Source of the DNA: Candidatus Omnitrophota bacterium
GTDB lineage: Bacteria > Omnitrophota > Omnitrophia > Omnitrophales > Aquincolibacteriaceae
Assembly (NCBI GenBank): GCA_035368605.1
Contig: DAOSLF010000008.1
Location: 1,964-65,963 of the forward strand
DNA length: 64,000 bases
Reading direction: 5' to 3'
A program made the translations under genes and the position numbers. The notes under the pieces were generated by a model that saw nothing but the letters and a program-made list of their open reading frames with translations, had not been told where the DNA came from and ran no database searches. Each line of letters begins with the position of its first letter. The first letter of the stretch is position 1. This document shows positions 28,868 to 60,810 of this stretch, one piece after another.

Positions 28868-28870
28868 GCG

Positions 28871-39300: not shown

Positions 39301-39808
39301 CCACGGACGTCCGGGTCAACGGATGGTGAAGCCGGATTCGAACCTCATAAAGGCGCTGATTTTCCGAGACCTGGGTCGCCGGATCCACCAGGACCTTGAG
39401 ACTTTGAACCTGAATATGCTGAAGCCCATCGAACCGGTAGTTGCCTCCCTTTTGGGGCTTCAGGAACGGCGAGTCGAACCACGTTTCAAGATTCTTCTGG
39501 AAAAGGACCTTCGACCCTTCCGATTCCTCGTAGACGACCAAGTCTCCCGAAGCGTCCGCCTCTGCGGAAGGGAAGCCGTTGGCCCGGACATAGTCGTTGA
39601 ATACTTTAAAGGTTCGATCGATCACAGCTTCGGCCGCCCACGCAAGCCTGATGCGGTCAGCCGTCCGCTGAATAGTCCGCTGCTGCATCCCCAGGCTTAT
39701 AAAATTCCCCGCGAGTACCAGCGAAATGGCAATCACCAGAAAAAACATCAAGATGATCGCGAACCCCTTCTGATTGTTCCTCATAATCCTTTCATTCCAG
39801 TTCGGCAT
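36317..39808 (-). CDS. giant GspK/PilX-like minor (tip) pseudopilin, paralog 1 (1163 aa)
   Basis: N-terminus QKGFAIILMFFLVIAISLVLAG...RTADRIRLAWAAEAVID is PilX_N/GspK-like (prepilin-like helix lacking Glu5). Shares conserved blocks with the two other giants (FDYAVFYNTDLEIAAGPDWELQGPIFSNGNVYLM, YYALRSAGNIYFYFK, FGVLSNSWN, YSGGLENLINFQE, C-terminal LRTNPPPLP...FRE). Contains DEDRDGDSD. Confidence 0.6.
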   Translation of the reverse strand: MPNWNERIMRNNQKGFAIILMFFLVIAISLVLAGNFISLGMQQRTIQRTADRIRLAWAAEAVIDRTFKVFNDYVRANGFPSAEADASGDLVVYEESEGSKVLFQKNLETWFDSPFLKPQKGGNYRFDGLQHIQVQSLKVLVDPATQVSENQRLYEVRIRLHHPLTRTSVEYSQKIQVRTGRLFDYAVFYNTDLEIAAGPDWELQGPIFSNGNVYLMTGSGSRLTLRMPPDDSTNTEYYALRSAGNIYFYFKTALAENYFLKNNKYRAAVPDFYKTDESSHPFYVEGTKGVEVYGEPAAKRFLGYDADEAPPFVYTFRNSVQYGGATAHTILVVKPGETKPYVLLSSAVPSTPIRKTEASCDFPSKVPYAESYKSGVGNDLSVSAAIGPSRAEARKLLPGWEASNPVSTAPMVNPFWTGFPKKSDLRSAMIADHPSHGVTRHALPVGGKDLAPHKLIEPLALNGDEDRDGDSDDPQDQRIRRYKYQTCASLVFRCVDADCRTYKLFIHKAGATTVSSLGFSSGLLDGSEANGVYLKENFYDYRLRRSARLIEINVKTFLNRMRQRYGLDFSTDKPVIYVQTVPAYPVIAESAGPLLVKVSGGAELPLSGLSVVTNGRLWVQGDYNIYPYDADGVLLTDACSAEELKSGACATNERNVPPADLYSDSFGVLSNSWNSDNETAAQTLESRVASDTILNAAVVTGHLPSQLVKPLKPAIWSMPSCDLKTEPVESQPDRTPCLYFGDDQFNFYESPGVPASVYDENGIGYLNPDSELVQRLKSNNTIMEAAGSTFQYYLDKTTVPYNLVREYYRRSSASVPYPATPSRTDPPIPGTQNVNTYRLPQDYFKATDPLKIPITEAVRDNSTAAGVDDGYIIYKRDGGELPFPSMGYPGVTFRRIRKGYGEVDAPLQYACVKNWIESYKQTAQTPSSVYVCDPPTEEKTVPACRWISVSEWKTETSARTSHCICGAKYDNVNPDKNNNRDLLTKFPDWTVDDPATTDNEESPSWLGSGLCPDRDQNYFPYFPKLRYTWKAQGPLWEAKYSGGLENLINFQELWYDTKGTPNSPADDTRATLHFRGSLVSGWDSEEMKRSDGTPAFFGTTYYYWSRAAAPEAPYYTAPVRDYSFNDKLRTNPPPLPYKSGMLLFSIVRRDFREEPVKGTGYDA

Positions 39809-41704: not shown

Positions 41705-41747
41705 CGTCTTCCCTCCTCTTGCCGTACCCGCCCGCAGGCCGATACGG

Positions 41748-43691: not shown

Positions 43692-43725
43692 TGTTCCTTT
43701 CATAAAGAAAACAAGGTTGTGAACG

Positions 43726-46700
43726 TTATACCGCGCTCTCGTCTCTGATACCAAGGGGCTCGCCGCTACGCGGGTCCAGTTCCCTGAAGGTTTTCCGCGT
43801 CAGCGCGTAAACGGACGGCGTTCCCGGCGGCGGACTGGTCCTGAGAGTTTCATTATAAAAAGCCTTCCGGGCCGGCGCGCAATAATAGGCGGGTTTCCAA
43901 AAAGCGGGCCGCACTGTTTCCGAAGTGTCCTCCGGGAAAACGGTCGTTGAGATCCGGAGTTCTCTGGCATGCCAAGGAGCCGTCTGGACCCCGTAAAACC
44001 GGATCGTCTGCTGCCAGTCGACAACCTCCTTCTCGTTCACCAGTGAAATCTTTCCCCATTGTTCCTGGTAATTGATCAGGTTTTCAAGCCCTCCGCTGTA
44101 CCGGGCGACATAAAGCGGAACGTAGCGCCCGTGATAATATCTGATCCCTGAAGGCTCATAGCGTAACGATGGACCTGCTCCGCCCGTACAGGTGTAGGTA
44201 CATACCGGAGCCTCCGTTTCGCTGCCTCCCGTGCAAATGTTTTTACACACATAATCAGGCGTTGTCGAGATATAGTTAAGAGAAGGACCCGTGAGCCAAT
44301 CCGGCATAATCACATTGAAGTAAACACCACCCGTCAGCGGCACTCCCCTGACTTCGCACTCCGGCGGAACGGGCTGATAGGTCCGCCATTCCCAATCCCT
44401 TCCCGGACATCGCATCATGCTGTCGGTATTGACAGGGATATCCCGGTCAGGAAGCACATTCCCCGAAAAAACCACGTTCCGGTAACTTACGGCAGCGGAA
44501 CTGAACCCCGTATCGGCCGGATGGCATATCCTGTTCGTGGAAAAATCGCAGCGCCCGTCCGTGTTTTTTTTATCGCAACAGACAAGACTCCACTCGTTGG
44601 CGTCATTCTTTCTCGCAACCGGAATGGTATAAGCCACGCGAAATCCCCTGAGAATCTCCTTCTCGTCCGGGGTCAGCTGATCCCAGCGGGTAACGGTCCT
44701 CGTGACAATGATATTGTGCAAAAGTTTCTGGAGGGCCGTGCCATCAGGATCGGGCAGCGGCGGCGCCGAATCATCGGGGGAACTCCAGGCGAGTCCCCAG
44801 GGGCTTCCGGCGCCCCACCGGTCCTTTTGCGCGGTGTAGGACTGCTCCTTTTCCGGGGCCGAGAGACCCCTGACGCCGTTCGTGTTGTAATAGGTCCCGT
44901 CGTATTCCTTCCAGGCCGTGTTGTAGATCCGCTTGAAAAGCATCAGCGTCGGAACATAAAAAATACCCGTCGCCGTATCCTTCCGCAATTCACAATCAGA
45001 CCAATCAACCGGGTTCCCGGACGCGTCCAGCCCCGCCGGGCAGCGGGCACCGGAAACGGCAGGAACATGGCTCGCCCCTGTTTGGGAATACCAGCCGCTG
45101 GCATCAGGCGGCAGATCTTTCACGAAGGACCGCCGCGCCCACTGGAAACATTCTTCCGGATGATCCGCATCGCACCTCGGGAACGTTTCTTCAAGCTGGG
45201 AAGGCACAAACCCCGTCACGACGGCGGTATTGACCATCGAGGATCCGGCAACGGGCCGTTTGTCTAAAGATGTCGCCCCGCCGTAAGAATCCTTCCAGCT
45301 GTTCGAAAGTATCCCGAAACTGTCGCTGAAAACCGCAGCCGGCGGAAAAACACAGGCGCGTTGGTCCCAATCCCCGGCGGAGCAGGTCCCTCCGGAGCGG
45401 GTTCCGTTCGGGTATTCGTAGGTGTTATAGTCCCCCTGGATCCAGAGACGCCCGTTCGTCACGACCGTGAGTCCCTTCGACAAAAGCTTTCCGCCGTTCG
45501 TCAGCCTGACAAGCGCCACCTTGTTTTCTCCGCTGGCCTCATAGGGACCTTCCGGAACACCGACGTACACAAGACACCCTGTGCCGCTGGTATCGCATTC
45601 AAACCCCGACAACACGGTATTCAGATTCGCAACATCGATCGTCACTGTGGGGAATTCCCCGCCCATCCGGTAATCGTAGAGCATGCCGATCGACGCAAAG
45701 GCACCGGCCGCAATCGCGCTACCCGCCCGGTCCGTGGCGGCAATGGGTTCGGTGTCTGTCGTGCAACTCAGCCGGAGATCCGCCATGGAGGCCAGCTTCT
45801 GTTTTCTGACCTCAACCTTTTCACCCTCGACCAACGGATCGATCAGGGTGTGAATTCCGTTCGGGGCGTTCGGATCCCCGACGGGGATGGCTCTTGACGT
45901 CACGCCCTCAACCGTATCCGCGACATACATTCCCGTCGGATCGGAAGCCGGAGCCCCCCAACGGTTGTTCAACACCTCTTTCTGGCTACCTTCCCCCGGA
46001 TTTTCAGACTTGGGATCGGCAGCCGTCCAGCCCGCAAGCCGCTTCGGCGGTTGCAGTCCCACCGGATCATAAACCGGCGTCGCATTCATAAAATCTCCGG
46101 CTTTTCCGTAATTCCCTGCGTCCAAATAGTAGGACGCGGCGGCGTCAGGCGGCCACAAAGGATATTGATTCAGAAAGTAATGGTGACTCAGGAACTTGAG
46201 GGGGATGTCATCTTTACCCGGGATCTGAAGAACGATATGCGGCTCATCATACAAAAAACTGGAGAACCGGATCTCGTTCCGCGGATAGTAGAACATTGGC
46301 ATGGCCTTTTCGCGGGTTCTGAACGCGTACGGTTCGAGTTCCATGCTGTCGAGTCCGTCAATGCCTCCGTAGCGGGACATCCTCTCGGCATCATCGGTCC
46401 GCAGGTAATCCGGCGCTCCGTTCACATAGGCTTCGTTCCGGTACCGACCATCTTTCTTGTCCAGAAAATAGTTCCGGGCCAGAAACCGCTTGAAGTAGAA
46501 ATAAATATGGCCCGCGCTCCGGAGCGCATAATAATTCTCCGGATCTTCGCCGATATTCGAGGGAAGGGAAAGCCGCAGTTGACTGCTCGGCCCGGTCATG
46601 AGGTAGATGTTCGCGTTGGAGAAAACAGGCCCCTGGAGATCATAATCGGTGCCCGAAGCGATCTCGAGGTCCGTGTTGTAAAAGGTGCTGTAATCAAAAA

Positions 46701-47235
46701 GTTTCCCGGCGGAAACCCGGACAACCTGGCTAAAGAAACTCGCGGAACCCGTATTGGGATTCGTCAACATGACGCGAATTTCATACTCGCGATAAGCGTC
46801 CGTCGGATTCGACATGGATGAGGAACTTTTGATCTGTCTCACGGACAGCGCAGACTGATCAAGCTGGACTATGACCGAGGGAAAGGGCCATTTGAAATCA
46901 TCGGCAAGACCGCTGAACCATGCCGCGATCTCCGAGGTGAACAAGGGCCCCTCCGTCTGCCCGGGCATGCTGTTCCGGACTTCAAGCGTATCGGCGTCAT
47001 AGTCCGGATACTGGGCGTTCGTTTCGACAAAATCCGAGAACTTTGCGAAAGTGTAATCAATCACGGCCTCCGCGGCCCAGTAAAGACGGATGCGGTCGAT
47101 CGTCCGCTGCGTCGTCAGCTGTTGCTGGCCAAGGCTCAGAAAACTCCCCGTCATGACCGCCACCATCGCGATCACGAGCGCGAGCGTCATGATCATGACA
47201 AAACCTTTTTGTTGTCTTCCACGCCAGTCCATCAT
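43726..47235 (-). CDS. giant GspK/PilX-like minor (tip) pseudopilin, paralog 2 (1169 aa)
   Basis: N-terminus QKGFVMIMTLALVIAMVAVMTGSFLSLGQQQLTTQRTIDRIRLYWAAEAVID. Conserved blocks shared with paralogs 1 and 3 (FDYSTFYNTDLEIASGTDYDLQGPVFSNANIYLM, YYALRSAGHIYFYFK, FGILSNSWK, YSGGLENLINYQE, C-terminal LRTSPPP...FRELDP). Confidence 0.6.
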   Translation of the reverse strand: MMDWRGRQQKGFVMIMTLALVIAMVAVMTGSFLSLGQQQLTTQRTIDRIRLYWAAEAVIDYTFAKFSDFVETNAQYPDYDADTLEVRNSMPGQTEGPLFTSEIAAWFSGLADDFKWPFPSVIVQLDQSALSVRQIKSSSSMSNPTDAYREYEIRVMLTNPNTGSASFFSQVVRVSAGKLFDYSTFYNTDLEIASGTDYDLQGPVFSNANIYLMTGPSSQLRLSLPSNIGEDPENYYALRSAGHIYFYFKRFLARNYFLDKKDGRYRNEAYVNGAPDYLRTDDAERMSRYGGIDGLDSMELEPYAFRTREKAMPMFYYPRNEIRFSSFLYDEPHIVLQIPGKDDIPLKFLSHHYFLNQYPLWPPDAAASYYLDAGNYGKAGDFMNATPVYDPVGLQPPKRLAGWTAADPKSENPGEGSQKEVLNNRWGAPASDPTGMYVADTVEGVTSRAIPVGDPNAPNGIHTLIDPLVEGEKVEVRKQKLASMADLRLSCTTDTEPIAATDRAGSAIAAGAFASIGMLYDYRMGGEFPTVTIDVANLNTVLSGFECDTSGTGCLVYVGVPEGPYEASGENKVALVRLTNGGKLLSKGLTVVTNGRLWIQGDYNTYEYPNGTRSGGTCSAGDWDQRACVFPPAAVFSDSFGILSNSWKDSYGGATSLDKRPVAGSSMVNTAVVTGFVPSQLEETFPRCDADHPEECFQWARRSFVKDLPPDASGWYSQTGASHVPAVSGARCPAGLDASGNPVDWSDCELRKDTATGIFYVPTLMLFKRIYNTAWKEYDGTYYNTNGVRGLSAPEKEQSYTAQKDRWGAGSPWGLAWSSPDDSAPPLPDPDGTALQKLLHNIIVTRTVTRWDQLTPDEKEILRGFRVAYTIPVARKNDANEWSLVCCDKKNTDGRCDFSTNRICHPADTGFSSAAVSYRNVVFSGNVLPDRDIPVNTDSMMRCPGRDWEWRTYQPVPPECEVRGVPLTGGVYFNVIMPDWLTGPSLNYISTTPDYVCKNICTGGSETEAPVCTYTCTGGAGPSLRYEPSGIRYYHGRYVPLYVARYSGGLENLINYQEQWGKISLVNEKEVVDWQQTIRFYGVQTAPWHARELRISTTVFPEDTSETVRPAFWKPAYYCAPARKAFYNETLRTSPPPGTPSVYALTRKTFRELDPRSGEPLGIRDESAV
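47056..47211. repeat. 156-bp direct repeat copy A (5' end of giant paralog 2)
   Basis: Positions 47056..47211 are identical to 50539..50694 except for one mismatch (gcgagcg versus gcaagcg). Encodes the PilX_N-like helix. Confidence 0.85.
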
Positions 47236-50200
47236 TTACGAAACGGTCTCCTCCTGAACCCCGTACGGCTTCCCCGTTTTCGGGTCCAGTTCCCTGAAGC
47301 GCTTGCGGCTGACCGAAAACAGGCTCATCCCGGAACTATCCGGAAGGGGGGGCGGATTAGCGCGAAGGTTTTCGTTAAAATCATAATCCCGGATGGGCGC
47401 AAGATAGTAAGTAGTCCCATAAAAAGCGGGCTCCCCGGTTGTTTTGACCAGCTGCTTCGAATCCCAAATCGCCACAATATTCCCTGAAAAATGAAGTGCA
47501 AACTTGAGATCATCCCTCACATCTTGTGTGCCTCTGTCGTCGTACCATGCTTCCTGAAGATTGATCGTGTTCTCAAGACCGCCGCTGTAGCGCGGTTCCC
47601 AAAGGGCCCCATAAGCTCTCCACGCGTAGTATATTTTGGGATAAGACGAGAAATAGTTATCGGCTTCCTCAGGGCATATTCCCGACCCCAGAAAACCGGC
47701 TGGATTCGTCCAATCTTCAGGATGCCGGTCAAAATCCTGGGGCTCGCCCCCGGGGATGCCTGTCACATGCGGATTGCTTAGCGTCGCTTGGGGATTAGTG
47801 TATACATTCACGGCATCATCACATCGGCATTTCGCCTTCGTCTCCGTAAGACCGGTCCAGTGGGTCTGAGTGGTACAGGTATCCGGAACAACATCCCCCC
47901 CCGGTGTTGTCAGGCATGACTTGGACTGAACATAATAATTCTTAACTTCGCTGTTTTTGATGCACGTGTAATGAACCGGATAATCCGGGCCCGCAGATTT
48001 CCAAAGTTTTCTCCAGTAAACTCCGGGATAATTCGAACCTGCGAATGGCCGGTCGGGGCTTTCCTCCCAATAGAACCGTTGATCCCAAACAGGACCGTCA
48101 GAAACGGTGTCGGTTCCTCTTGTTTCCACAATAGGGAGGGGTTTTGGATCGACCGGATCAAAATATTCTTGCGGCATTCGATGAACGCTGACATCCAGAA
48201 CAGCACCTGGGTTTTCGACACGGGAAGTCTCCACATAATCGGCCGCCCCAAGCAATTTCGTCATGGCGATCGTGGTCGTAGAAACACTTTGAGGGGCAGG
48301 ATGATTGGTCGCCAGGAGAGCGTTAAACTGCGGGCTATTCACCATCATGTTATTTTTGGCTTTGAGCTCCTGGTAGTAATTTCCCGTCCGTTTGAGATTC
48401 CAGATCCCTCGAGAATCGCGCTCAATGTCCTCCCAATGAAAACCATCCGGCGAATAACAAATAGTGGGAGCCCCGTAAAGACACGGGATCGTGTCCGGAT
48501 CAGACGCGCATTGAGCGAGGTTTATAGGCTTCAGCGCAACTGCACCGGGCCTGGTCGCGCAGAGCTCGATCGTTTCGGGATTCGTGTCCCCGCCAGGCCA
48601 AGGCGTGGGCACCGCCTTCACAAGCTGGCTCCGCAGAAAACCCGTAATGACAGCGGCATTCAGGATCACATCTTCCTTCAGGACCCGTGTTCTGTCGGCA
48701 ATCAGCTTCGTTGTCGTATTAATCAGATTTCTTCCGGCGTCTTCAATGCCCATGTTCCAGTTATTGGATAACACTCCAAAACTATCGCTGTAAAGATCGG
48801 CGGAGGGTGGCCTGCATGACGAGTCGGGATTCGCAATATCGGCGAAGGCGCAGCGTTGCCCTGTTTCGGGGTCAGTCACATTATAATCCCCCAGGACCCA
48901 TAATCTCCCGTTCGTCACGACCGACAGCCCTGCCGCAGGCAGTTCCGCCCCGTTGCGGATCCGCACCGCCACCGGCGCCGGTTTCCCGTCTCTCCAGGTG
49001 TCGGGCGATTCCGTGCGGATGTATATTGAAGGGCGGTGCTCCGATGAAAAAGCGATCCCTTCCTCCGACGTAATAGCCCCGAGAAACCGGTGTACGTCTA
49101 TATCCAAAAGGCGCACAGCAGCCCCCAGACGATAATCGTAAAAAGTCCGGAACTCGAGTCCGGAGTTCGGCCAGTCAGCAATAACTCCCGTGGACAGATC
49201 TTTGGTCTTCCAAGAACCGCCGGCCGGATCTTTGATCTTTAGCTGATAACTTCCATCCTTGCAGGAACCGTCGGAATCATCCACCGAGCAGACAAAACGT
49301 ATATTGGCGTACGTTTCGAATTTGTACTTGGCTACCAGGGGAGATTCTCTCCCGTCAAGAGGTTCAATGAGGACATGTGTGTCTAACCGGCCGTCTCCCA
49401 AAGGAAGCGCTTTCCGGGTCACCCCCTGTTTGCGGTCAGCTATCCATAACCCGTGGCCCTCCCCCGGAAATCCGTTCCAGTAAGGATTCACGAAGGGCGG
49501 ATCAGAAACGGGATTTTCAGGCGTCCATTCCTTATGGAGTTTCCGGACACCTGAGCGATCTGACCGGTCAAAGGCCGTGGAAATACTGACCTTTTTATCG
49601 GGGGTGTAGTCCTTGGCATATCCCAGATAAGGAGCATTTCTCAATCTGTGATCGGTGAAGGTCATCGGCGTGGACGGTTTCGAGGCAGACAAAAAATCGA
49701 AGTATTCCGCGACCGCTCCGGTGATCTTCTTGACTTTAATGGTGTGGGACGAAATGCCGCCGTATTCCAATCCATTCGAAAAAGTGTACAGCAGCGGCGG
49801 AGCAGACGTATAGTTAAGGGTCGTCAAAAGGTGGGGCGAGGGATACACCTCGACTCCCCGGAAGGGAGCTCCGGAGCTATAATCGGCACTGTTAAGGGGG
49901 TGGGTCGCCAGGTCTGTCCTGTAGATGCTCTCCTGGACGGCATCCCTGTAGTAGCTGTTTTCCAGAAGATAATTAGGCGCGAGAGTGGTTTTGAAGTAGA
50001 AATAAATATTCCCCGCGCTTCGCAGCGCGTAATACTCGGGGTAACTCACATCATTCGGCATTTTAAACGTCAACGTGGTCCCCTTGCCGTTCATCAGGTA
50101 AACATTCCCGTTTGAAAAAACAGGACCCTGCAGTTCCCAATTGAGCCCGGGCGCGATCTCGAGGTCATCATTGTAAAAAACACCGAAATCAAAGAGCGTT

Positions 50201-50745
50201 CCGGTCCCGACGGAAATTGTCTGTAAATACTCCGACACCGACCCCGACAGCGGATTCGAAACCCGGACGCGGATCTCATAGATCCGTTTGTAAACATCGG
50301 TAAGCGTCGAAGAATCCGCTGTGACGGTCACATCATCCAGCGAGAGATGCTTCATAAAAACTTCATTTCCCCAGAGCGCCTTGAACGGACCGGAAAACCA
50401 TTCGGCAAGCCGTGTCTGGAACCGATCATTGACCCTGGAAACAACCGTCCCGGTATCATCATAAACAAGGCGCCCTGATTCTATAATCGGGGGAAATCCA
50501 TTGGCGCGGGTATAGAAGTAAAACATCCACTGACTCTTATCAATCACGGCCTCCGCGGCCCAGTAAAGACGGATGCGGTCGATCGTCCGCTGCGTCGTCA
50601 GCTGTTGCTGGCCAAGGCTCAGAAAACTCCCCGTCATGACCGCCACCATCGCGATCACGAGCGCAAGCGTCATGATCATGACAAAACCTTTTTGCCGTTT
50701 CATGATGTTCTCTCGCTGAATGTTTCCGCTCAGGGTCTCCCTCAA
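47236..50745 (-). CDS. giant GspK/PilX-like minor (tip) pseudopilin, paralog 3 (1169 aa)
   Basis: N-terminus identical to paralog 2 over about 52 aa. Conserved blocks FDFGVFYNDDLEIAPGLNWELQGPVFSNGNVYLM, YYALRSAGNIYFYFK, FGVLSNNWN, YSGGLENTINLQE, C-terminal LRANPPPLP...FRELDP. Abuts paralog 2 with no intergenic gap. Confidence 0.6.
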   Translation of the reverse strand: MRETLSGNIQRENIMKRQKGFVMIMTLALVIAMVAVMTGSFLSLGQQQLTTQRTIDRIRLYWAAEAVIDKSQWMFYFYTRANGFPPIIESGRLVYDDTGTVVSRVNDRFQTRLAEWFSGPFKALWGNEVFMKHLSLDDVTVTADSSTLTDVYKRIYEIRVRVSNPLSGSVSEYLQTISVGTGTLFDFGVFYNDDLEIAPGLNWELQGPVFSNGNVYLMNGKGTTLTFKMPNDVSYPEYYALRSAGNIYFYFKTTLAPNYLLENSYYRDAVQESIYRTDLATHPLNSADYSSGAPFRGVEVYPSPHLLTTLNYTSAPPLLYTFSNGLEYGGISSHTIKVKKITGAVAEYFDFLSASKPSTPMTFTDHRLRNAPYLGYAKDYTPDKKVSISTAFDRSDRSGVRKLHKEWTPENPVSDPPFVNPYWNGFPGEGHGLWIADRKQGVTRKALPLGDGRLDTHVLIEPLDGRESPLVAKYKFETYANIRFVCSVDDSDGSCKDGSYQLKIKDPAGGSWKTKDLSTGVIADWPNSGLEFRTFYDYRLGAAVRLLDIDVHRFLGAITSEEGIAFSSEHRPSIYIRTESPDTWRDGKPAPVAVRIRNGAELPAAGLSVVTNGRLWVLGDYNVTDPETGQRCAFADIANPDSSCRPPSADLYSDSFGVLSNNWNMGIEDAGRNLINTTTKLIADRTRVLKEDVILNAAVITGFLRSQLVKAVPTPWPGGDTNPETIELCATRPGAVALKPINLAQCASDPDTIPCLYGAPTICYSPDGFHWEDIERDSRGIWNLKRTGNYYQELKAKNNMMVNSPQFNALLATNHPAPQSVSTTTIAMTKLLGAADYVETSRVENPGAVLDVSVHRMPQEYFDPVDPKPLPIVETRGTDTVSDGPVWDQRFYWEESPDRPFAGSNYPGVYWRKLWKSAGPDYPVHYTCIKNSEVKNYYVQSKSCLTTPGGDVVPDTCTTQTHWTGLTETKAKCRCDDAVNVYTNPQATLSNPHVTGIPGGEPQDFDRHPEDWTNPAGFLGSGICPEEADNYFSSYPKIYYAWRAYGALWEPRYSGGLENTINLQEAWYDDRGTQDVRDDLKFALHFSGNIVAIWDSKQLVKTTGEPAFYGTTYYLAPIRDYDFNENLRANPPPLPDSSGMSLFSVSRKRFRELDPKTGKPYGVQEETVS
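50539..50694. repeat. 156-bp direct repeat copy B (5' end of giant paralog 3)
   Basis: See copy A. Flanking sequence on both sides is diverged. Confidence 0.85.
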
Positions 50746-52836: not shown

Positions 52837-53262
52837 CTATTTCAGGTTGGGCCAGTATTGCCCATTCTCGGGGTCATAATCGCCGTCGCCGGTCCAGACG
52901 CCCGTTGCCTGAAGTGTCAGGTTACCATTGGTCCGCGAAGCCGTGACATGCCCGGACGCATCGGTGCTGAAGTTCCATCCGTGCCGCGAATCCTCGAAAT
53001 TGATACTGAGAGTATCTTTGATCCCGTCTGCCTCAAGGGCATCGGGATAACGACCGTGCTCATCGTGATACTGGAGGAGCGCGCGATGGATGGGCCCCAT
53101 GATGGCGATGGCTTCCGCGGTAGCGGCTTTTTCCGCATGGCCGAAAAACCGCGGGATCGTGAGCGAAGCAAGGATACCGATGATAACGACCACGATCAGA
53201 AGCTCCGTCAACGTGAACCCTTCATGATTCGCTCCTGGATTCATGGCCATATCTTTTGTCAT
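52837..53262 (-). CDS. type IV pilin / GspG-like major (pseudo)pilin, tandem paralog 4
   Basis: ...NHEG|FTLTELLIVVVIIGILASLTIPRFF prepilin signal with Glu5. Start uncertain (ATG at 53262, 53250 or 53244). Confidence 0.65.
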   Translation of the reverse strand: MTKDMAMNPGANHEGFTLTELLIVVVIIGILASLTIPRFFGHAEKAATAEAIAIMGPIHRALLQYHDEHGRYPDALEADGIKDTLSINFEDSRHGWNFSTDASGHVTASRTNGNLTLQATGVWTGDGDYDPENGQYWPNLK

Positions 53263-53273
53263 GTTAGCCCGGG

Positions 53274-53708
53274 TTACGACGGCCTGTTGGGGTGCGTCCC
53301 GCCCCATGTTCCGTCCTCAATGTCGAGAGTTATGGTTTCGCCAACCTTGCTGTTGTCACCTTTATCGCAGGTGTGGCGAGTCGCCGTAATCGTTCCCAAC
53401 GTTCCGTTCGCAGTAACCGTATAGTTAAAGCATCTTTTGTTGTTGCTGTTCGGGCTTTCGAGTCCGACCTTGAGCCAATTTGTAGTGTCGCCAGTCGTCA
53501 GAGATTGAAACTCGTCATTTTCCAGCTGGTAGGCGAGCTCACCCTGCCGGATCGCACCCATCATATTGATCGCTTCGGCGACGAGGGCTTTTTCCTTCTG
53601 GGGGAAAAACCGCGGCATCGCGATCGCGCCGAGAATACCGAGAATCACGATCACCATGAGAAGCTCCGCCAGCGTGAAACCGCTCTTTCCGGTCCATGAT
53701 TTTTTCAT
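53274..53708 (-). CDS. type IV pilin / GspG-like major (pseudo)pilin, tandem paralog 3
   Basis: MKKSWTGKSG|FTLAELLMVIVILGILGAIAMPRFFPQKEKALVAEAI. 144 aa. Confidence 0.75.
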   Translation of the reverse strand: MKKSWTGKSGFTLAELLMVIVILGILGAIAMPRFFPQKEKALVAEAINMMGAIRQGELAYQLENDEFQSLTTGDTTNWLKVGLESPNSNNKRCFNYTVTANGTLGTITATRHTCDKGDNSKVGETITLDIEDGTWGGTHPNRPS

Positions 53709-53730
53709 AGCGGGCTCCCTTTCGTCCGAA

Positions 53731-54147
53731 TCAGTTTTCGGGCGCGAGCGGATGAATGCCGGTGCCCGTACTGTCCCACGCGCCGTCTTTTAGTTTTAAT
53801 TTGATGACCTTGCCCCCATAGTTTGCATCCGTTCCTCCGCGCGTCGCGACCACCGTACTGTTATCCACGGAATAAGTAAAGCGGGAGGAATCGGGGTCAT
53901 CAAGGCCGATCTTGTTCCAGTCCGCGTCGCCGGAGTTTTGGGTGAGCTCCAGATAATCGCCGTTCTCGAGCCTGTAGGAGAGCTCGGCCTGGCGGATGGC
54001 ATGGAGCATCGCGACGGCCTCGGCCACGATCGCTTTTTCCTTCTGCGGGAAGAATTTCGGCATCGCGATCGCCCCGAGCAGGCCGAGGATCACGACCACC
54101 ATCAGCAGTTCCGCCAGCGTAAAACCTTTTTTGCTGTTTTTCACCAT
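53731..54147 (-). CDS. type IV pilin / GspG-like major (pseudo)pilin, tandem paralog 2
   Basis: MVKNSKKG|FTLAELLMVVVILGLLGAIAMPKFFPQKEKAIVAEAV. 138 aa. Confidence 0.75.
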   Translation of the reverse strand: MVKNSKKGFTLAELLMVVVILGLLGAIAMPKFFPQKEKAIVAEAVAMLHAIRQAELSYRLENGDYLELTQNSGDADWNKIGLDDPDSSRFTYSVDNSTVVATRGGTDANYGGKVIKLKLKDGAWDSTGTGIHPLAPEN

Positions 54148-54211
54148 ATCGCCTGTTTTTTTGAAACCAACAACCTAAAGTTAAAGCCAAAGGGAACAAC
54201 TGCGACCAAAA

Positions 54212-54243
54212 CAAAGGGGCAGTCTGCACGACTGCCCCTTTGA
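54212..54243 (-). terminator. rho-independent terminator after the first pilin gene
   Basis: Hairpin AGGGGCAGTC-tgcacg-ACTGCCCCT followed on the minus strand by ttgttttgg. Confidence 0.5.
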
Positions 54244-54252
54244 AAAGACCTG

Positions 54253-54684
54253 TTACTTTGGCATACACCCTTTTGACGAATCCGTAACAGAAACAGCAGT
54301 AAAATTGCCTGAACAATCAAACCCGGTAGCATCAATAGCAAGCGTAATCGTACTATTCGCGGTGTTCGTCATCTTTGAAGTGGCTTTGCAGTCGCCACCA
54401 TTTGTGCATGTATAGGTAAACGACCCTGACTTTATTTCCCGCAGCCCGAGTTTTGCTAGATTGGTGGTATCATTGTTTGAGCTAATCGCAACACCACCGC
54501 CGCCGGTTGAATCCATGTAAGTTGCCTGGGCACGGCGCAAAGTCCCGAGCATCTGCTGGGCTTCGGCGATGGCGGCGCGTTCCGTCTGCGCGGTCATGCG
54601 GGGAAGGATCAGGGCCGCGAGAATGGCGATGATCACGACCACGATCAGCACTTCAATGAGCGTGAAACCTTTTTTATTCATCAT
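54253..54684 (-). CDS. type IV pilin / GspG-like major (pseudo)pilin, tandem paralog 1 (probably the main expressed pilin)
   Basis: MMNKKG|FTLIEVLIVVVIIAILAALILPRM. 143 aa. GGAG-type RBS. Own terminator downstream. Confidence 0.75.
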   Translation of the reverse strand: MMNKKGFTLIEVLIVVVIIAILAALILPRMTAQTERAAIAEAQQMLGTLRRAQATYMDSTGGGGVAISSNNDTTNLAKLGLREIKSGSFTYTCTNGGDCKATSKMTNTANSTITLAIDATGFDCSGNFTAVSVTDSSKGCMPK

Positions 54685-54747
54685 GGAATTTCTCCTTTGT
54701 TTTTAACAGTGCACCCGTAAAACCTTGCGCCGCGTTTTCCCTATTAC

Positions 54748-56094
54748 TTAACCGCCCATCCCGCCGCGTGTCGAGAGTTCGATGATCGGGAGGAACATGG
54801 AAACGACGATTGTCCCGATCACGACGCCCATGACCACCAGCATCATGGGCTCCAGCATCGTCGTCAACCGGGTCAAAAAAGCGTCAACCCGCTCTTCATA
54901 ATAGGTCCCGATGAGGTCGAGGAACTTCTCGAGCTGTCCCGTCTCCTCCCCGACCGATAAAAGCTGCGTCATGAAGACCGGGAAGACCCGCCGCGCCTCG
55001 AGCTGGGCGCCGAGCCCCTGGCCGCCGCGCACGCCCTGCGCGACCTGTTTGATACCGGCCTCAAGATACGCATTTTCGACGAGCCGGGCGCCGATGTCAA
55101 GTGCCTGGAGGATCTGGACGCCCGATTTGAGGAGCGTGCTCATGCCGCGCGCAAAACGGACCACCGCGATCTGGATCGACATCTCCCCGAAGAACGGAAC
55201 GCGAAGGAACATCATGTGCATGAAAAACCGGATCTCGGGCGAGCGTTTTATGAGGAACCCGAGTATGATGAACGGAACCGGGATGAGGAGCAGGAGAAAG
55301 GCATGATGCCGAACGAGATCGCTCGCGGCGACCACGGCCTGCGTCAGCGCGGGAAGCTCCATTTTCTGCTGTTCGAAAATGGCGCTGAACTTCGGCACGA
55401 TGTAGATCAGCAGGAACGTCAGGGCGCCGATCACCGCGACGGTCAGGATCGACGGATAGAAAAACGCCGTGACGACCTTCGACTGGATGCGGGCCGAGGC
55501 CTCCTGGTATTGGGCGATCTCCTCGAGGCATTCGGGAAGTTTCCCGGTCGATTCGCCGACCTCCACGAGGTTCACCCACACCCACGGAAAAACCCCCTTG
55601 CGCTCGCGGATGGCGTGGCCGAACGAGCTTCCGCCCGAAACCGACTTCGTGATCTTTTCGATGATATTCTGGAAATGAGGGTTCGGAGTTCCGCGCCGGA
55701 CGATCTCGAGGGAACGGATGAGCGGAATGCCGGCCTTGAGGAGCGTCGAGAGCTGAACGGCGAAGAAGATCAGCTCGCGGGTGCTGACGCCTTTCCCGAG
55801 GACAATCGAGGACGTCTTGCGCGCGCGCTTTTTCGGCGCGGGCGCGGGACGCGCGGCGCCGGCCGTCACGAGCTTGGCGGCGCTTTCGAATTCCGCATGG
55901 CCGGGCTGTTTCACCGCGACCACGAGATAGCCCTGGCCGAGCAGACGGTACACGCATTCGTCGATCGACGAGGCCTCGATCGTGACATGTTTCAGTTCGT
56001 TCGGATTATCCCTCAGACGCACCCGGCATTCGTACCGCTCCGGGTGATCTCCGCCGCGAGGGGGCATGCCGGCTTGCGGGTTATTCATAGGCAA
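54748..56094 (-). CDS. type II secretion / type IV pilus inner-membrane platform protein (GspF/PilC family) with N-terminal extension
   Basis: Two T2SSF repeats (LLKAGIPLIRSLEIV...; LLKSGVQILQALDIG...). 3 TM segments. 448 aa. About 90-aa N-terminal extra region. Confidence 0.85.
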   Translation of the reverse strand: MPMNNPQAGMPPRGGDHPERYECRVRLRDNPNELKHVTIEASSIDECVYRLLGQGYLVVAVKQPGHAEFESAAKLVTAGAARPAPAPKKRARKTSSIVLGKGVSTRELIFFAVQLSTLLKAGIPLIRSLEIVRRGTPNPHFQNIIEKITKSVSGGSSFGHAIRERKGVFPWVWVNLVEVGESTGKLPECLEEIAQYQEASARIQSKVVTAFFYPSILTVAVIGALTFLLIYIVPKFSAIFEQQKMELPALTQAVVAASDLVRHHAFLLLLIPVPFIILGFLIKRSPEIRFFMHMMFLRVPFFGEMSIQIAVVRFARGMSTLLKSGVQILQALDIGARLVENAYLEAGIKQVAQGVRGGQGLGAQLEARRVFPVFMTQLLSVGEETGQLEKFLDLIGTYYEERVDAFLTRLTTMLEPMMLVVMGVVIGTIVVSMFLPIIELSTRGGMGG

Positions 56095-57775
56095 CGCTCA
56101 GAATCTCCTCGATCGTAGTGACGCCCCGTTCCACCTTCTTGAGGCCGTTCTGGAAAAGGGTCTCGTATTTTTTTTCCTTTTGCAGCCTGCGCATGGCGTC
56201 GAGGTTCGCGTCCTTGACAATGAGACGCCGGATGTCCTCATCAACAGGGATAACCTCGTAGATCGCGGCGCGACCCCAGTAGCCGATATTGCGGCATTTC
56301 GAACAGCCTTTGGCCCGGTAAATGGTTTCGGCCCGGATCCCGTAATCGGAACGCTCCTTGTCGGTGGGCCGGTAGGCTTCCTTGCAATCCTCGCAGAGGA
56401 GACGGATCAGCCGCTGGGCCGCAACAAGCGCGATACTGCCCGACACAAGATACGGCTGCACCCCGATATCGATCAACCGGGTGACCGCGGTCACGGCATC
56501 GTTCGTGTGAAGGGTCGAGAGGACGAGGTGACCGGTCAGCGACGCGCGGATACAAATCTCAGCCGTCTCAAGGTCGCGCACCTCGCCGACCAGAATGACG
56601 TCCGGGTCCTGGCGAAGAAACGCCCGCAGTCCCGAGGCAAAGGTCAGCCCGATATCCGGCTTCACCTGGACCTGGTTCACGCCCGTAATCTGGTATTCAA
56701 CAGGGTCCTCAATCGTGGTGATGTTGATGTCGGGCGAATGAATCTTGTTGAGGGCAGCGTACAGCGTGGTGCTTTTGCCGCTCCCCGTCGGGCCGGTCAC
56801 AAAGATCAGTCCGTACGGCCGCGTGAGCGCGAGCTCGAAATGCCGGAGCTGTTCCTCCTCGAAACCGAGCGCCCTCAGGTCCAGAAGGTCGGTGCGTTTG
56901 TCCAGGATACGCATGACCACCTTTTCACCGAACACGGTCGGGACCGTCGAAACGCGGACATCGATACGGCGCGCCTTGTAGGAAAGGGAAAACGAACCGT
57001 CCTGCGGGACCCGCTTTTCGGCGATGTCCAGCTTGGAGATGATCTTGATACGGGACACGACCGCGTTGTGAAGCTCGCGGGGCGGCGGCGGCAGTTCATA
57101 AAGGGTACCGTCGATGCGGTAACGGACCGTCAGCTTGTCGTAGAACGGCTCGATGTGGATATCGCTCGCGCGGTCGTCGAGGGATTTTTTGATCATCATG
57201 TCCACGAGCCGCACGACGGGGGCCTGTCCCGCTTCGGCCATCGCGGATTCGAGATCGACCCGCGATTCGTCCTTGGTCTCGATATACTGCTGGCTCGCGG
57301 CATCCACCTCGGACGAGGAGACTACTTCCTGGAGATCGGTCACGCTGTAATACAGGTCAATCGCACGCTTGATATCGGCTTCCGTCGAGAGCACAGTGAG
57401 GATGTCAAGCCCCGTCATTTTCCGGAGGTTATCGAGGAAGATCAGGTCCGGCATCTTCCCGACCGCGATCTTCAGCGACCGCTCGTCGCGGGAAAGCGGA
57501 AGGACCAGGTGTTTGCGGGCAAAATCCGGCGGGATGACCTCCTTCAGGCGCTGGTCGATACGCGGCACCAGCTCATCGGGAGAAACAAAGGAGATGCCGA
57601 GCTGTTCGGAAAGCGCCACGCGAAGATTCGCCTCGGTGATGAAACCAAACCGGATCAGGACCTGGCCGAGAGGTTCACGCGTTTCTTTCTGCTCGACGAG
57701 GGCCTGCGAAAGCTGCTGCACGGTGATCATTTTTTTACCGATCAGGATCTCGCCCAGCAAACTGTTGAGTCTCAT
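56081..57775 (-). CDS. type II secretion / type IV pilus assembly ATPase (GspE/PilB family)
   Basis: N-terminal T2SE_Nter domain (LGEILIGKKMITVQQLSQALVEQ). Walker A GPTGSGKSTT. Asp/His boxes. Tetracysteine CEDC...CSKC. 564 aa. Confidence 0.9.
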   Translation of the reverse strand: MRLNSLLGEILIGKKMITVQQLSQALVEQKETREPLGQVLIRFGFITEANLRVALSEQLGISFVSPDELVPRIDQRLKEVIPPDFARKHLVLPLSRDERSLKIAVGKMPDLIFLDNLRKMTGLDILTVLSTEADIKRAIDLYYSVTDLQEVVSSSEVDAASQQYIETKDESRVDLESAMAEAGQAPVVRLVDMMIKKSLDDRASDIHIEPFYDKLTVRYRIDGTLYELPPPPRELHNAVVSRIKIISKLDIAEKRVPQDGSFSLSYKARRIDVRVSTVPTVFGEKVVMRILDKRTDLLDLRALGFEEEQLRHFELALTRPYGLIFVTGPTGSGKSTTLYAALNKIHSPDINITTIEDPVEYQITGVNQVQVKPDIGLTFASGLRAFLRQDPDVILVGEVRDLETAEICIRASLTGHLVLSTLHTNDAVTAVTRLIDIGVQPYLVSGSIALVAAQRLIRLLCEDCKEAYRPTDKERSDYGIRAETIYRAKGCSKCRNIGYWGRAAIYEVIPVDEDIRRLIVKDANLDAMRRLQKEKKYETLFQNGLKKVERGVTTIEEILSVAYE

Positions 57776-57826
57776 ATTCCTCCGTTCCGGCTTCCGGGAA
57801 CGCCGGTCACTTGCCTTGGCCTGTCT

Positions 57827-59728
57827 CTAATTCGGAATCTCCTGAACCGCCGGGATCCCCGAAATATCTTCCTCATAGGAAGGTACGGCGGGTATCGCGG
57901 CCTGGGACGCCGGCGTTGACACTTTGCCGTCCAGCGTATCAAGCGTCGCCTGCATCAACCGTTTCCGGACGTCGAAATAGCTTTCATAATCAATGGGTTT
58001 TTCCTTCCCGTCCTTGAGTTCCCGGTACCATTCCTTCTTTTTCACATCATAGAAGGGCGCCTTTTCATCCTCAAATTTCAGGCGTTTGTCCGGGACATCG
58101 GGAGTTCTGAGCTCCGACGGATCGCGGATGATGTAGGGCGTCAGGAAAAGGATCAGTTCGCGGTCTTCGATCGATTTGCCGCTATTCGTGAAAAAGGCCT
58201 TCCCGACGACGGGGATGTTCCCGAAGAACGGCACTTTCCGGTCGTTCTTGGTCTGATTGCTGAAGAGCATCCCGCCAAGCGCGATGGTCTGGCCGTCATT
58301 CACCATCAGGGTCGTCCGCGCCGTGCGGACCGTCGTGTCACCCGTCTCGGAGGCGCTCACCGCGATAGTTGACTCGGCCACCGTCGCGAACGTCGGCTCC
58401 ACGGTCAGGGTGATCTGGTTACGCTGGTTGACGAGCGGCGTCACGCGGAGGATCGTGCCGACCTCGGCGCGCTCGATACTTTCCTGCGTCGTGCCGGCCG
58501 CGGCGCCGGAGGTCGTGAAGGTCGTCACGCCGATCGCGGCGTTGGTGGAGATCTTGATTAGCGCGGCGTGGTTGTCGAGGACCAGAATCTTCGGTTTCGC
58601 GATAACCTTGATCTTGTTCGCGTTTTCCAGAGCCTGGATCGTCAGCGTAAAATTCCGGAAATCGCGGGTACCGCTGGTCGTGATGGTCCCCGATTCAATG
58701 CGGGGGTCATACTGGTTCGCGGCGTCCTTGAGGGTGTTCCCGACATTGCTGAAGAAATCCCCCAGACTTTGCGTTTCCTGGGTACTGCCGTTAAAGCGGA
58801 AAGGCCAGTCGGTCGATGACACGCCGCCCGTGATCGTGCCGAGGTTGCCGCTCTGATCGCCCCACCGGATACCGACCGCGCGGCTGAGGTCCTCGAACGT
58901 TTCGACGAGCAGGACATTGATGAGAACCTGATCGACGGGACGGTCCAGCTGCTGGAGCGCGGCGGAGATCATCTTGAGCCGGTCCTCCGAATCCGTCACA
59001 ATGAGGCTGTTCGTCCGGTCATCCACGGAGACTTTTCCGCGGTCCGAGAGTATCTTTTCGACGGCCGCATACACCGCCGCCCCTTCCAGGTCGGTGTCAT
59101 CTTCATTATCGTTATTCTGGGTCAGGGTCGTCAGCCCGCCGCCGATGCTGCCGGAACTGCCCGAACTTCCGGAACTGCCGCTGCTCGATACTTCGATCTC
59201 TTTCGGCTTGCTGACGCGGATGTAATAGAGCTTGAACACGCGCGTCAGAAGCGGTGGCTGTTCGGGGGCGTCCGCCGAAGCGCGAAAAAGATAGATGTTC
59301 CGGCCGGGGATGAAATCATAGCTGACATTGCTGCCGTGGGCGATGGCCTGAAGCGCATCCTCGAGGGTCACATCGGCAAGCGTCATGTTGACCTGGCGTT
59401 CGGCGACCTCTTTGCCGGCCACGAAGTTGATTCCGCTCAATGAGGCGATCACATTCAGGACGTTGATCAGGGACGCGGATTTGAAGTCGAGAAAGAACTT
59501 TCCGGCATCTGTCCGCTCGACCTGCATTTTCGGGGTTTCCTTCGCCGCGGGCGCGCTTGCCGGCACTCCGGCGTACGGTTCGGGCGGACTGCCGTACGGT
59601 GACCCCGGGTCGGCATAAGCCGGATAGTTCCTGTTCGGGTCCTCGGCATGGACCGGCCCGGGCACCCCGGCGACCGCCAGAGTCCCCGCCAAAATCATTG
59701 CCATGATCCTGAGATTTTTTTTATGCAT
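57827..59728 (-). CDS. secretin (GspD/PilQ family) outer-membrane channel
   Basis: Signal peptide. N0/N1 domains (VSVDDRTNSLIV). Secretin domain (KIKVIAKPKILVLDNHAALIKIS...GTILRVTPLV). Ser/Gly low-complexity insert. 633 aa. Confidence 0.85.
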   Translation of the reverse strand: MHKKNLRIMAMILAGTLAVAGVPGPVHAEDPNRNYPAYADPGSPYGSPPEPYAGVPASAPAAKETPKMQVERTDAGKFFLDFKSASLINVLNVIASLSGINFVAGKEVAERQVNMTLADVTLEDALQAIAHGSNVSYDFIPGRNIYLFRASADAPEQPPLLTRVFKLYYIRVSKPKEIEVSSSGSSGSSGSSGSIGGGLTTLTQNNDNEDDTDLEGAAVYAAVEKILSDRGKVSVDDRTNSLIVTDSEDRLKMISAALQQLDRPVDQVLINVLLVETFEDLSRAVGIRWGDQSGNLGTITGGVSSTDWPFRFNGSTQETQSLGDFFSNVGNTLKDAANQYDPRIESGTITTSGTRDFRNFTLTIQALENANKIKVIAKPKILVLDNHAALIKISTNAAIGVTTFTTSGAAAGTTQESIERAEVGTILRVTPLVNQRNQITLTVEPTFATVAESTIAVSASETGDTTVRTARTTLMVNDGQTIALGGMLFSNQTKNDRKVPFFGNIPVVGKAFFTNSGKSIEDRELILFLTPYIIRDPSELRTPDVPDKRLKFEDEKAPFYDVKKKEWYRELKDGKEKPIDYESYFDVRKRLMQATLDTLDGKVSTPASQAAIPAVPSYEEDISGIPAVQEIPN

Positions 59729-59778
59729 GATCCGTTCTCCCCTTTCTTGGGAAACAAGCTGTCAATATCCCGCGAGCG

Positions 59779-60255
59779 TCAAAATGAAGCCGTATCCTGC
59801 TCCCGCTGTTCCGAAACCGGTTTCCGGGTCCTCCGTTGCTGAAGTTTTTTCAGCTCGCTTTCGGAAAGCATGGACAATGTCTGCGGGAGACCTCCGGTCT
59901 CGATATCCACTTCCCGTTTCCGGACCGAGACAAGCTTGATACCGTTCTTTTCCTCGCCCTCGAAGAAGACATCGCCGTTCATCACCGCGTAGGCGTCCTC
60001 GGAACCGACGCCAATCCCCTGCAGTTTGATGTTCGAGACGACAGGCGCCGCAACGACCGGTGCCGCGGGTTTTTCAGCCGGGATCGAGGAAGCGAACGGG
60101 TCCCGCACCTCCTGCTGGGCGTTCTCGACCGCGGAGGAAATGGAAGTCCCTTCCGACAGTCTGTCTTTTAAGGGCTCCTCGCCGCGCGCGACGACAGGCA
60201 TCGCGCCTGAGACGAATGCCAGGAGCATCAGGACCATTACGATTCGCTTTGTCAT
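59779..60255 (-). CDS. PilP/GspC-HR-like periplasmic protein (putative)
   Basis: Start at internal Met 60255 with an N-terminal hydrophobic anchor MTKRIVMVLMLLAFVSGA. C-terminal beta-sandwich pattern IKLQGIGVGSEDAYAVMNGDVFFEGEEKNGIKLVSVRKREVDIE, as in PilP. Confidence 0.45.
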   Translation of the reverse strand: MTKRIVMVLMLLAFVSGAMPVVARGEEPLKDRLSEGTSISSAVENAQQEVRDPFASSIPAEKPAAPVVAAPVVSNIKLQGIGVGSEDAYAVMNGDVFFEGEEKNGIKLVSVRKREVDIETGGLPQTLSMLSESELKKLQQRRTRKPVSEQREQDTASF

Positions 60256-60794
60256 TTTCCCGCCTTTTGTCTCAGATAAGTGTCCATTATCATCCGGACC
60301 TGCAGCAGAGGGACTTCCTTTTCGGATCCCCGACCGCCGCTTCGCGTCTGTGTCATGCTGATATCCTGAATGAATACGGGAGGCCGCATCTGTTCCAGGA
60401 CCTTCAGATAATTCAGCAGCGCAAAATAAGTGCATCGCATGTCCGCCTCGGCCCGAAGCCGGACATAGTTGTCGGCGTTTTCCGTCCGGGGTATCAGCCC
60501 CTGGAGCTCAACTTTTTGCTGACTTGCCAGATCGGAAAGCTTGGCGATAAGGATCGGGCGGTCATCCATGTTCGCCAGCAACGCCTCGCGGCGGGCAACC
60601 TCTTCCTTGAGAGCGGTGATTTCCCGGTAAAGCTCCAGTTTCTTTTGGGAGGTCTTTATTTCACCGTGCAGCGTCGCGATCTCCCCGATCGCGGGACGGA
60701 CCAGGGTCAGGAACCCGAAGAAAACGCACAGGAGAGCGACCGCGATCCCGATCCCCCATTCCATGTGCCGCGCTTTCAGTTTCAAACCCGCCAT
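60252..60794 (-). CDS. PilO/GspM-like inner-membrane pilus/T2SS assembly protein
   Basis: Single N-terminal TM helix (WGIGIAVALLCVFFGFLTLV), then coiled-coil and ferredoxin-like domain. 180 aa. Position between the PilM-N fusion and PilP. Confidence 0.55.
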   Translation of the reverse strand: MAGLKLKARHMEWGIGIAVALLCVFFGFLTLVRPAIGEIATLHGEIKTSQKKLELYREITALKEEVARREALLANMDDRPILIAKLSDLASQQKVELQGLIPRTENADNYVRLRAEADMRCTYFALLNYLKVLEQMRPPVFIQDISMTQTRSGGRGSEKEVPLLQVRMIMDTYLRQKAGK

Positions 60795-60810
60795 CGTCCC
60801 GTCCCCGCCT

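Follow-up and report, generated by a model that had tools for sequence, protein, structure and literature searches.

Pilus systems that join a constant N-terminal domain to variable heads include the Q/I pilin inversion of Moraxella and the pilE/pilS system of Neisseria, which use a site-specific invertase or silent partial cassettes. The pilin paralogs PilA1-6 of Haloferax volcanii also carry a constant N-terminal hydrophobic domain with variable heads (PMC4371748), and the mtrA-1/mtrA-2 paralogs of methanogens show long-lasting gene conversion that is restricted to one domain of two genes in one operon (PMC4632066). Omnitrophota, the phylum considered here, are thought to depend on host-cell attachment via type-4a pili (PMC10066038). 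We analyzed a 64,000-nucleotide stretch of DNA from a Candidatus Omnitrophota bacterium (GenBank assembly GCA_035368605.1, contig DAOSLF010000008.1, positions 1,964 to 65,963 of the forward strand; hereafter the window), in which two adjacent genes for giant pilin-like proteins, A and B, share a near-identical 156-nt direct repeat at their 5' ends and are strongly diverged elsewhere, with a third paralog, C, in the same gene cluster.

As with mtrA-1/mtrA-2, A and B are old duplicates within one operon in which one domain is homogeneous and the rest has diverged, and the pattern is found in separate lineages. Unlike that pair, the homogeneous part is a predicted membrane and filament-core helix of 52 residues rather than a catalytic domain, the pattern is documented in two species, and the tract is short (156-181 nt) and creates a substrate for deletion or duplication. 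PilA1-6 and the Moraxella and Neisseria pilins resemble A and B in being paralogs with a near-identical assembly helix and different exposed parts, the shared helix letting alternative subunits use one machine. Those are major pilins, however, whereas A and B are complete genes in direct tandem, of about 1,160 aa, and apparently cap-type minor pilins; the comparison of nucleotide identity applies to A and B, not to H. volcanii. Domain-restricted conversion in an operon and pilin paralogs with a constant N-terminus are already known, and A and B are a new, well-controlled example in an unannotated family of a poorly known phylum.

Homogenisation of the helix module at the DNA level

The repeat lies at positions 47056-47211 and 50539-50694, with both copies on the minus strand at the 5' (high-coordinate) ends of their genes, and the copies match at 155 of 156 bases without gaps. 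Self-alignment and a repeat finder thus confirmed what a sequence-only reading of the window had described, namely a near-identical direct repeat with a single-base difference in two genes that otherwise diverge. The period between the copies is 3,483 bp, and both translate as QKGFVMIMTLALVIAMVAVMTGSFLSLGQQQLTTQRTIDRIRLYWAAEAVID (running from QKGF to AEAVID). Their sole mismatch, at window position 47182 versus 50665 (repeat position 30 in gene sense), is synonymous, with Leu encoded by CTC in the A copy and by CTT in the B copy; it serves below as a marker base, and the stretch downstream of it is fully identical for 126 nt. Directly beyond both edges, aligned identity drops to roughly 35-45%, giving the tract sharp boundaries. 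The repeat finder additionally recovered a third, diverged copy of the module in C, which the earlier reading had not mentioned.

The same layout, in which two small pilin genes (151 and 238 aa; together U) are followed by B and then by A, with the C/T marker in the two repeat copies, was found in independent contigs: L001 (JGI 3300010344, 84.6 kb), which is 99.987% identical to the window, L024 (JGI 3300025682, 61 kb), which is 100% identical over 23.5 kb, and L016 (ENA ERZ27249275, 7 kb), which is 99.69% identical. Contig L003 carries the full B copy and 111 nt of the A copy with the same marker, and the two full-length proteins (P0007, P0022) are also encoded together on a JGI contig of 33 kb. 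Exact protein matches of A, B and C are also present in Candidatus Omnitrophota/Omnitrophica metagenome-assembled genomes (MAGs), e.g., HOE68854.1, HOE68855.1, HOE68849.1 and ADurb.Bin314. In all, five assemblies have the B-A order, and L001, L016, L024 and the 33-kb contig constitute four independent long contigs. Because the same two copies recur in these contigs, the tandem repeat is not an artefact of the window's assembly, and the window itself is not collapsed. Because the marker is common to strains that differ from one another at up to 0.3% of sites, homogenisation happened before they split.

Contigs of at least four other assemblies do break inside the repeat, at 47101 (L003), 47154 (L017) and 47164 (L018) and, in the one that encodes P0012 (HQB94915.1), at residue 43 of A. 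The predicted assembly problem at this site was accordingly borne out as fragmentation but not as collapse, given the B-A structure in four independent long contigs. An assembler that copied one N-terminus onto the other gene, or that misassembled the tandem order, would be in keeping with these breaks and with the chimeric-looking contigs described below. Against this stand the presence of the same structure and marker across samples and pipelines (JGI 3300010344, JGI 3300025682, ENA ERZ27249275 and ERZ27249273), the length of the longest shared run (126 nt, below the k=141 of the ENA contigs), and a diverged (92%) version of the repeat in another species, and we regard such an artefact as extremely improbable. 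An exact 30-mer of the repeat had 0 matches in the metagenome_contigs collection, and a protein-pattern scan of the same collection returned five loci, each with a single giant or a fragment, and no further tandem pair. In one contig (L018, ERZ2648042, 2.7x coverage), the A copy has the B-type marker at window position 47182; the two copies may be 156/156 identical in that strain, or B-copy reads may have entered at the contig end.

In a codon alignment of A and B, identity outside the tract is 44% over all nucleotides and 35% at third positions, compared with 99.4% and 98% (51 of 52 third positions) inside it. Codons for the same residue differ in 181 of 300 cases outside the tract vs. 1 of 52 inside. 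Elsewhere the genes have no identical run longer than 19 nt, and nucleotide identity peaks at 67% among the other 52-codon windows, a background against which 155 matches in 156 have P ~3e-26, which excludes chance. Synonymous sites are saturated between A and B outside the tract.

Identity arising from extreme purifying selection on the helix, or from an overlapping nucleic-acid signal, would fit with the helix being the most conserved part of the family. Such selection would have to account for synonymous sites that are identical too (51/52), while 34 residues of the module are identical between A and C and 18 of these are encoded by different codons. The N-termini of other pilins in the cluster reach only 65-77% nucleotide identity (the N-terminal 175-nt repeat of four tandem small N_methyl pilin paralogs of 138-156 aa, window 52837-54684, which are not homogenised), and because both these and the C module have diverged at the nucleotide level, selection on the helix yields roughly 70% identity, not 99%. 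Folding gave a z-score of -0.37 relative to shuffled sequences, and there was no Rfam match. On the synonymous-site data, selection alone appears effectively refuted, and we give it next to no weight.

Relationships among the bodies of the giant proteins differ from those of the modules. Body amino-acid identity is 44% for B-C, 34% for A-B and 33% for A-C, whereas tract nucleotide identity is 99% for A-B and 68% for B-C, so that the tract tree conflicts with the body tree. The 67 residues that follow the tract sort into an A type (A, L002, L007-g2 and L008-g2) and a B/C type (B, C and L007-g3). Contig L007 belongs, with the overlapping contig L012, to a second Omnitrophota species (CAYMER01), in which the orthologs of A and B are also adjacent: its g3 is 65.6% identical to B at the amino-acid level and its g2 40.9% identical to A, and similarity between g2 and g3 at the nucleotide level is limited to a 181-nt, 92% repeat at the module. 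The N-modules group by genome, with nucleotide identities of 0.99 for A-B and 0.94 for g2-g3 (0.90 at third positions), vs. 0.69-0.71 between the window's species and this one other species. Modules that are alike within a genome, together with bodies that follow orthology, form a classical signature of concerted evolution.

Giants that are not adjacent lack this pattern. In L008, two giants lie about 1.3 kb apart and are not homogenised (0.54 nt identity), and C, which is also non-adjacent and has partner pilins of its own (143 and 253 aa), is not homogenised either. Of all pairings within a set of 37 family members, A/B stands out as the extreme outlier (N-module identity 1.00 vs. body identity 0.31). 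In two species, adjacent paralogs carry a module that has been homogenised at the DNA level; with three internal controls, namely C, the small tandem pilins and the L008 giants that are not adjacent, this is a very clean prokaryotic case limited to one structural module. The earlier reading had proposed recent gene conversion or homogenisation of the N-terminal assembly helix; synonymous sites, conflicting trees and the second species strongly uphold this, and "recent" must be qualified, as the event predates strains differing at up to 0.3% of sites.

Giant proteins as putative pilus caps

The N-terminus of the window proteins consists of a basic leader that ends in Gly (MKRQKG), followed by FVMIMTLALVIAMVAVMTG... 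with about 20 hydrophobic residues and no Glu5, and the pattern (K/R...G, then F-A-L, without Glu5) is common to 37 family members. Absence of Glu5 is a property of the capping subunit PilX (bioRxiv 10.64898/2026.02.12.705559). Within the family, median identity is 35% in the N-module vs. 29% in the body, with a conserved WAAEAVID motif. A word-indexed homolog search gave only six clusters; a full scan of 1.84 billion representatives with a hidden Markov model of the family showed it to be larger, with about 40 full-length clusters (at 50% identity) and about 1000 shorter relatives (550-700 aa).

Pfam searches of the full giants (E<=0.01) and of their N-terminal 110-116 residues (E<=10) returned no pilin family. 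The HpsA model (NF038301) scored 17-28 bits on the window proteins, below its cutoff of 400 and restricted to one motif at residues 170-221, and NCBIfam gave nothing beyond this sub-threshold motif. The shorter relatives match PilX_N (18-24 bits, cutoff 25.5), GspK NF037980 (21-23 bits, cutoff 130) and HpsA, in each case below threshold. The AlphaFold (AF2) model, built from the 37-sequence alignment, replaced an earlier one from a 6-sequence alignment that had a predicted local distance difference test score (pLDDT) of 32; it has a pLDDT of 77 and a predicted template modelling score of 0.79. In this model, the tract (residues 9-60) lies entirely within a helix that spans residues 3-73, and the helix is followed by a sheet at 126-178 and then by a large beta-rich body. 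The only PDB structure that matched it at <1e-3 was the Thermus tip pilin ComZ (6qvi), and a PDB sequence-profile search with the 37 sequences gave no match. N_methyl pilins are encoded directly upstream of the giants, with GspE, GspF, a secretin and PilM/N in the same strand run.

On the basis of leader, architecture and context, we regard A, B and C as giant capping minor pilins, similar to PilX/ComZ/HpsA, that fall outside any curated family, and describing them as giant pseudopilins, as had been done from the sequence, is reasonable by leader motif, context and modelled fold, without membership in a family model. Two results count against this assignment: the template modelling scores of the ComZ match are low (0.12 and 0.22), and PF07963 N_methyl, PF14341 PilX_N and NF037980 GspK have no match on the N-termini of A, B and C even at E<=10. 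The giants form a separate and unannotated Omnitrophota family.

In common with ComZ (6qvi) and cyanobacterial PilX_EPS/HpsA (bioRxiv 10.64898/2026.02.12.705559), the giants have a predicted helix without Glu5, a putative pilin sheet with a very large beta-rich insertion, and genes beside core minor pilins; unlike those proteins, they score below all family cutoffs, have low structural similarity to ComZ, and occur in 2-3 tandem copies. The gene order (small pilin, pilin of ~240 aa, large Glu5-less pilin) and the predicted role as distal cap also recall GspI-J-K and FimU-PilV-W-X, although the giants are four to five times larger than GspK or PilX, and two alternative caps follow one I/J-like pair. 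From this analogy, we infer that A and B are located at the pilus tip. Because both genes follow a single partner pair, either A or B could, on the GspI-J-K/PilV-W-X model of the tip complex, cap the same priming complex: the two would share the 151-aa and 238-aa partners, dock in one tip-priming complex via their identical helix, and display different bodies of ~1,100 aa. This suggests a design principle for pilus tips, with a constant docking helix and interchangeable giant heads.

Probable recombination at the module and candidate recombinant junctions

The near-identity of the two copies is probably the result of homologous recombination, in the form of non-reciprocal gene conversion, between neighbouring and anciently diverged paralogs, with concerted evolution of the helix module. 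The repeat would be the DNA for an alpha-1 module comprising the end of a prepilin-type leader, the membrane and filament-core helix and its continuation, and one gene's module would have been overwritten by the other's through recombination between the adjacent genes. As the helix would be the single stretch similar enough for homologous pairing, conversion tracts could be expected to begin and end at its edges, each round restoring the homology needed for the next, and the same homogenisation would have arisen independently in the sister species. We infer conversion in preference to other forms of homologous exchange. The donor was possibly B and the recipient A, a hint that comes from the module being closest to that of C.

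A homogenised repeat of 156 nt would in turn be a substrate for RecA-type unequal crossover, which would delete or duplicate the 3,483-bp B cassette in frame, and exchange at the module may alter the number and order of cassettes among strains. Junctions of both predicted kinds occur in public assemblies. In L004 (ENA ERZ27249270, 4,622 bp; P0015), the order is the tail of the 151-aa pilin, the 238-aa pilin, the B leader, the repeat with the B-type marker, the A body and the start of a glycoamylase gene. Its chimeric gene is intact (1164 aa) and equals the product of deleting the 3,483-bp unit, leaving a B-less arrangement, and the contig has private single-nucleotide polymorphisms (SNPs) on both sides of the junction, with other SNPs common to L016. 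In L005 (NCBI DAOPCN010000321.1) and L006 (JGI 3300009715), which carry P0020, the 3' end of B is followed by the A leader, the repeat with the A-type marker and 130 nt of B body, the reciprocal, B-to-B junction that a tandem duplication or excision of a circle would produce.

As assembled sequences, these contigs have in our judgement about even chances of being real variants or assembly chimeras. The proposal that the repeat is a substrate for deleting or swapping about 3.5 kb is supported, though not proven, by the predicted junctions in L004 and L005/L006, which may be chimeras. A k-mer bubble around the SNPs at 50483 and 50310 was considered as the cause of the common end of L005 and L006, and no standard k fits its geometry. 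The 2.8-kb L005 fragment, though from Omnitrophota, is binned in a Syntrophales MAG (GCA_035396105.1), probably through a binning error caused by the contig being fragmented at the repeat. In practical terms, the repeat fragments short-read assemblies and gives rise to chimeric-looking contigs, and long reads are required for gene counts and variant calls at such loci. Should the B-less and B-B junctions prove true, presence or absence of tip adhesins would be directly measurable in existing digester metagenomes.

Array structure also differs between species. In the sister species, the A-type gene precedes the B-type gene, unlike the B-A order of the window. After g3, its last giant, and before the terminal pilin, L012 carries a 42-nt N-module remnant, 'HQKGFALITALFL' (CAYMER010000135.1, positions 3155-3196), which is 92.9% identical to the start of the module of g3 and looks like the scar of a lost giant gene. 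Given this remnant and the A-B order, such arrays do appear to rearrange. A further contig, L025 (JGI 3300009666), follows the window through U and B to a breakpoint at 47400 and continues with 144 nt that are not in the window (contig positions 5426-5569), cutting B to 1110 aa; this breakpoint is either a chimera or a different rearrangement.

The same machinery acting at the same site could have left the repeat through a different history, in which the B cassette (module, B body and A leader; 3,483 bp) was recently inserted or duplicated by a single crossover, whether Campbell-type integration of a circle or unequal sister exchange, and the two copies are the halves of that crossover. The B-less haplotype of L004, with private SNPs to either side of its junction, the L005/L006 junction that an excised circle or a tandem duplicate would have, the lack of the whole B/A block in L002, and the variable array order and N-module remnant would all accord with such an event. 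It fits poorly with the distinct leaders and start contexts of A and B, with the ribosome-binding site of A lying inside the 3' end of B, and with a marker that is fixed across strains differing at ~0.3% of sites. Moreover, the orthologs of A and B are also adjacent in the sister species, where the module differs by 30% at the nucleotide level and its two copies are 94% rather than 100% identical, which points to repeated homogenisation. We consider this single structural event unlikely.

Beyond conversion itself, we tentatively raise, with more doubt than belief, that the module is the exchange point of a natural tip-cassette system in which adhesin bodies of ~3.5 kb are added, removed, duplicated and reordered behind fixed priming pilins. 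Were such a system real, co-existing strains of host-dependent Omnitrophota would differ in the giant tips they display and hence in their attachment targets, and identity of the module would be kept because both docking and recombination competence are preserved. A stronger version, in which a dedicated variation system akin to Neisseria pilE/pilS or Moraxella Piv inversion recognises the repeat, or uses it for exchange, to swap the tip protein, could draw on the constant N-terminal module with variable bodies, the presence of both recombinant junctions in public assemblies, and a strain-variable A7/A8 frameshift in the adjacent response-regulator gene. Yet both copies belong to complete translatable genes with their own starts rather than to silent partial cassettes, the repeats are direct, with no inverted repeats >=40 nt in the window, the window open reading frames (ORFs) scanned include no recombinase or invertase domain, no structured RNA or known RNA element was found at the repeat, and five assemblies have the same B-A order, making programmed switching very unlikely.

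Several points weigh against the conversion reading and its extension to rearrangement. Homogenised adjacent giants are found in two species only, and the recurrence comes from one fragmented MAG (L007 and L012). A double crossover would leave the same trace as conversion, as would a recent unequal crossover or Campbell-type event in which one module was re-created, and the donor direction is weakly indicated, with species distance as a confounder. In L018, the B-type marker of the A copy is read from a contig end at 2.7x coverage. The junctions are from short metagenome contigs (4.6, 2.8 and 1.1 kb), with all crossovers inside the 126-nt identical stretch, as a de Bruijn-graph chimera would also give, and L005 and L006 stop at the same base (window 50409), 130 nt past the repeat, which looks limited by read length.

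The pilus cluster and neighbouring genes

Coordinates of the giant genes, the module copies and the surrounding features are collected in Table 1. On the minus strand, the cluster runs from PilM/N through the secretin, GspE, GspF, four small N_methyl pilins, a response regulator and the 151-aa and 238-aa pilins to B and A, and continues with a PF10091 glycoamylase with CBM9, an XRE regulator, the 143-aa and 253-aa pilins, C, the 165-aa pilin and an RND efflux system. The two sets of partner pilins are paralogous (38% and 44% amino-acid identity). For B, gene callers take the ATG at 50703, while the mechanical ORF extends to a TTG at 50745. The ATG of A follows immediately after the stop codon of B, with a GAGGAG ribosome-binding site within the 3' end of B, and a promoter and terminator scan found nothing distinctive between the two genes. 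In the relative L002, synteny is kept with only the second, C-type module, and the whole B/A block is missing.

Table 1 Features of the giant pilin-like cluster (positions in the window)
Feature	Position	Strand	Remarks
Giant tip-pilin-like gene A	43726..47235	-	1169 aa; putative, from sequence, AF2 pLDDT 77 and ComZ match
Giant tip-pilin-like gene B	47236..50703	-	1155 aa from ATG 50703; body 44% identical to C and 34% to A
Giant paralog C	36317..39808	-	1163 aa; belongs to second, duplicated minor-pilin module
Repeat copy in A	47056..47211	-	Residues 9-60: last three leader residues and first 49 of predicted mature alpha-1 helix; marker C at 47182 (gene sense)
Repeat copy in B	50539..50694	-	155/156 vs. 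A copy; marker T at 50665 (gene sense)
N-module of paralog C	39617..39772	-	Vs. A and B: 67% nt, 65% aa, 46% third-position identity; not homogenised, an internal control for the effect of purifying selection alone
Recombination unit (putative)	47212..50694	-	3,483 bp: one repeat copy, B body and A leader; missing in L004, circularly joined in L005/L006
Partner minor pilins upstream of B and A	51462-51917 (151 aa); 50742-51458 (238 aa)	-	Both N_methyl; one set for two giants
Partner minor pilins of C	40557-40988 (143 aa); 39792-40553 (253 aa)	-	
N_methyl pilin of 165 aa	35830..36327	-	Closes C module; ortholog after giant array in sister species (L012)
Cluster machinery	52837..62334	-	Four small pilins 52837-54684; GspF 54748-56094; GspE 56081-57775; secretin 57827-59728; PilM/N 60811-62334

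The glycoamylase with CBM9 and the XRE-type regulator lie between the two minor-pilin modules (window 41045-43754), and their synteny is conserved in the distant relative L002 (6055-8596); the glycoamylase/CBM9 protein may serve the pilus or secretion system as cargo or as a functional partner. The response-regulator gene (window 52006-52742, minus strand) is split by an A7 run at ~52416-52422 into ORFs of 196 and 130 aa. The window, L001 and L024 share this A7 state. In L003, L016 and L025, the run is A8 or the gene is intact at 245 aa, and the gene of L002 is intact at 249 aa, a difference that reflects either homopolymer phase variation or a pseudogene in the window strain. Directly downstream of the pilus cluster, at window 25706-32140, two genes in tandem encode RND transporters of the AcrB family (1053 and 1089 aa), accompanied by HlyD-like and OEP genes, and L002 has the same neighbourhood.

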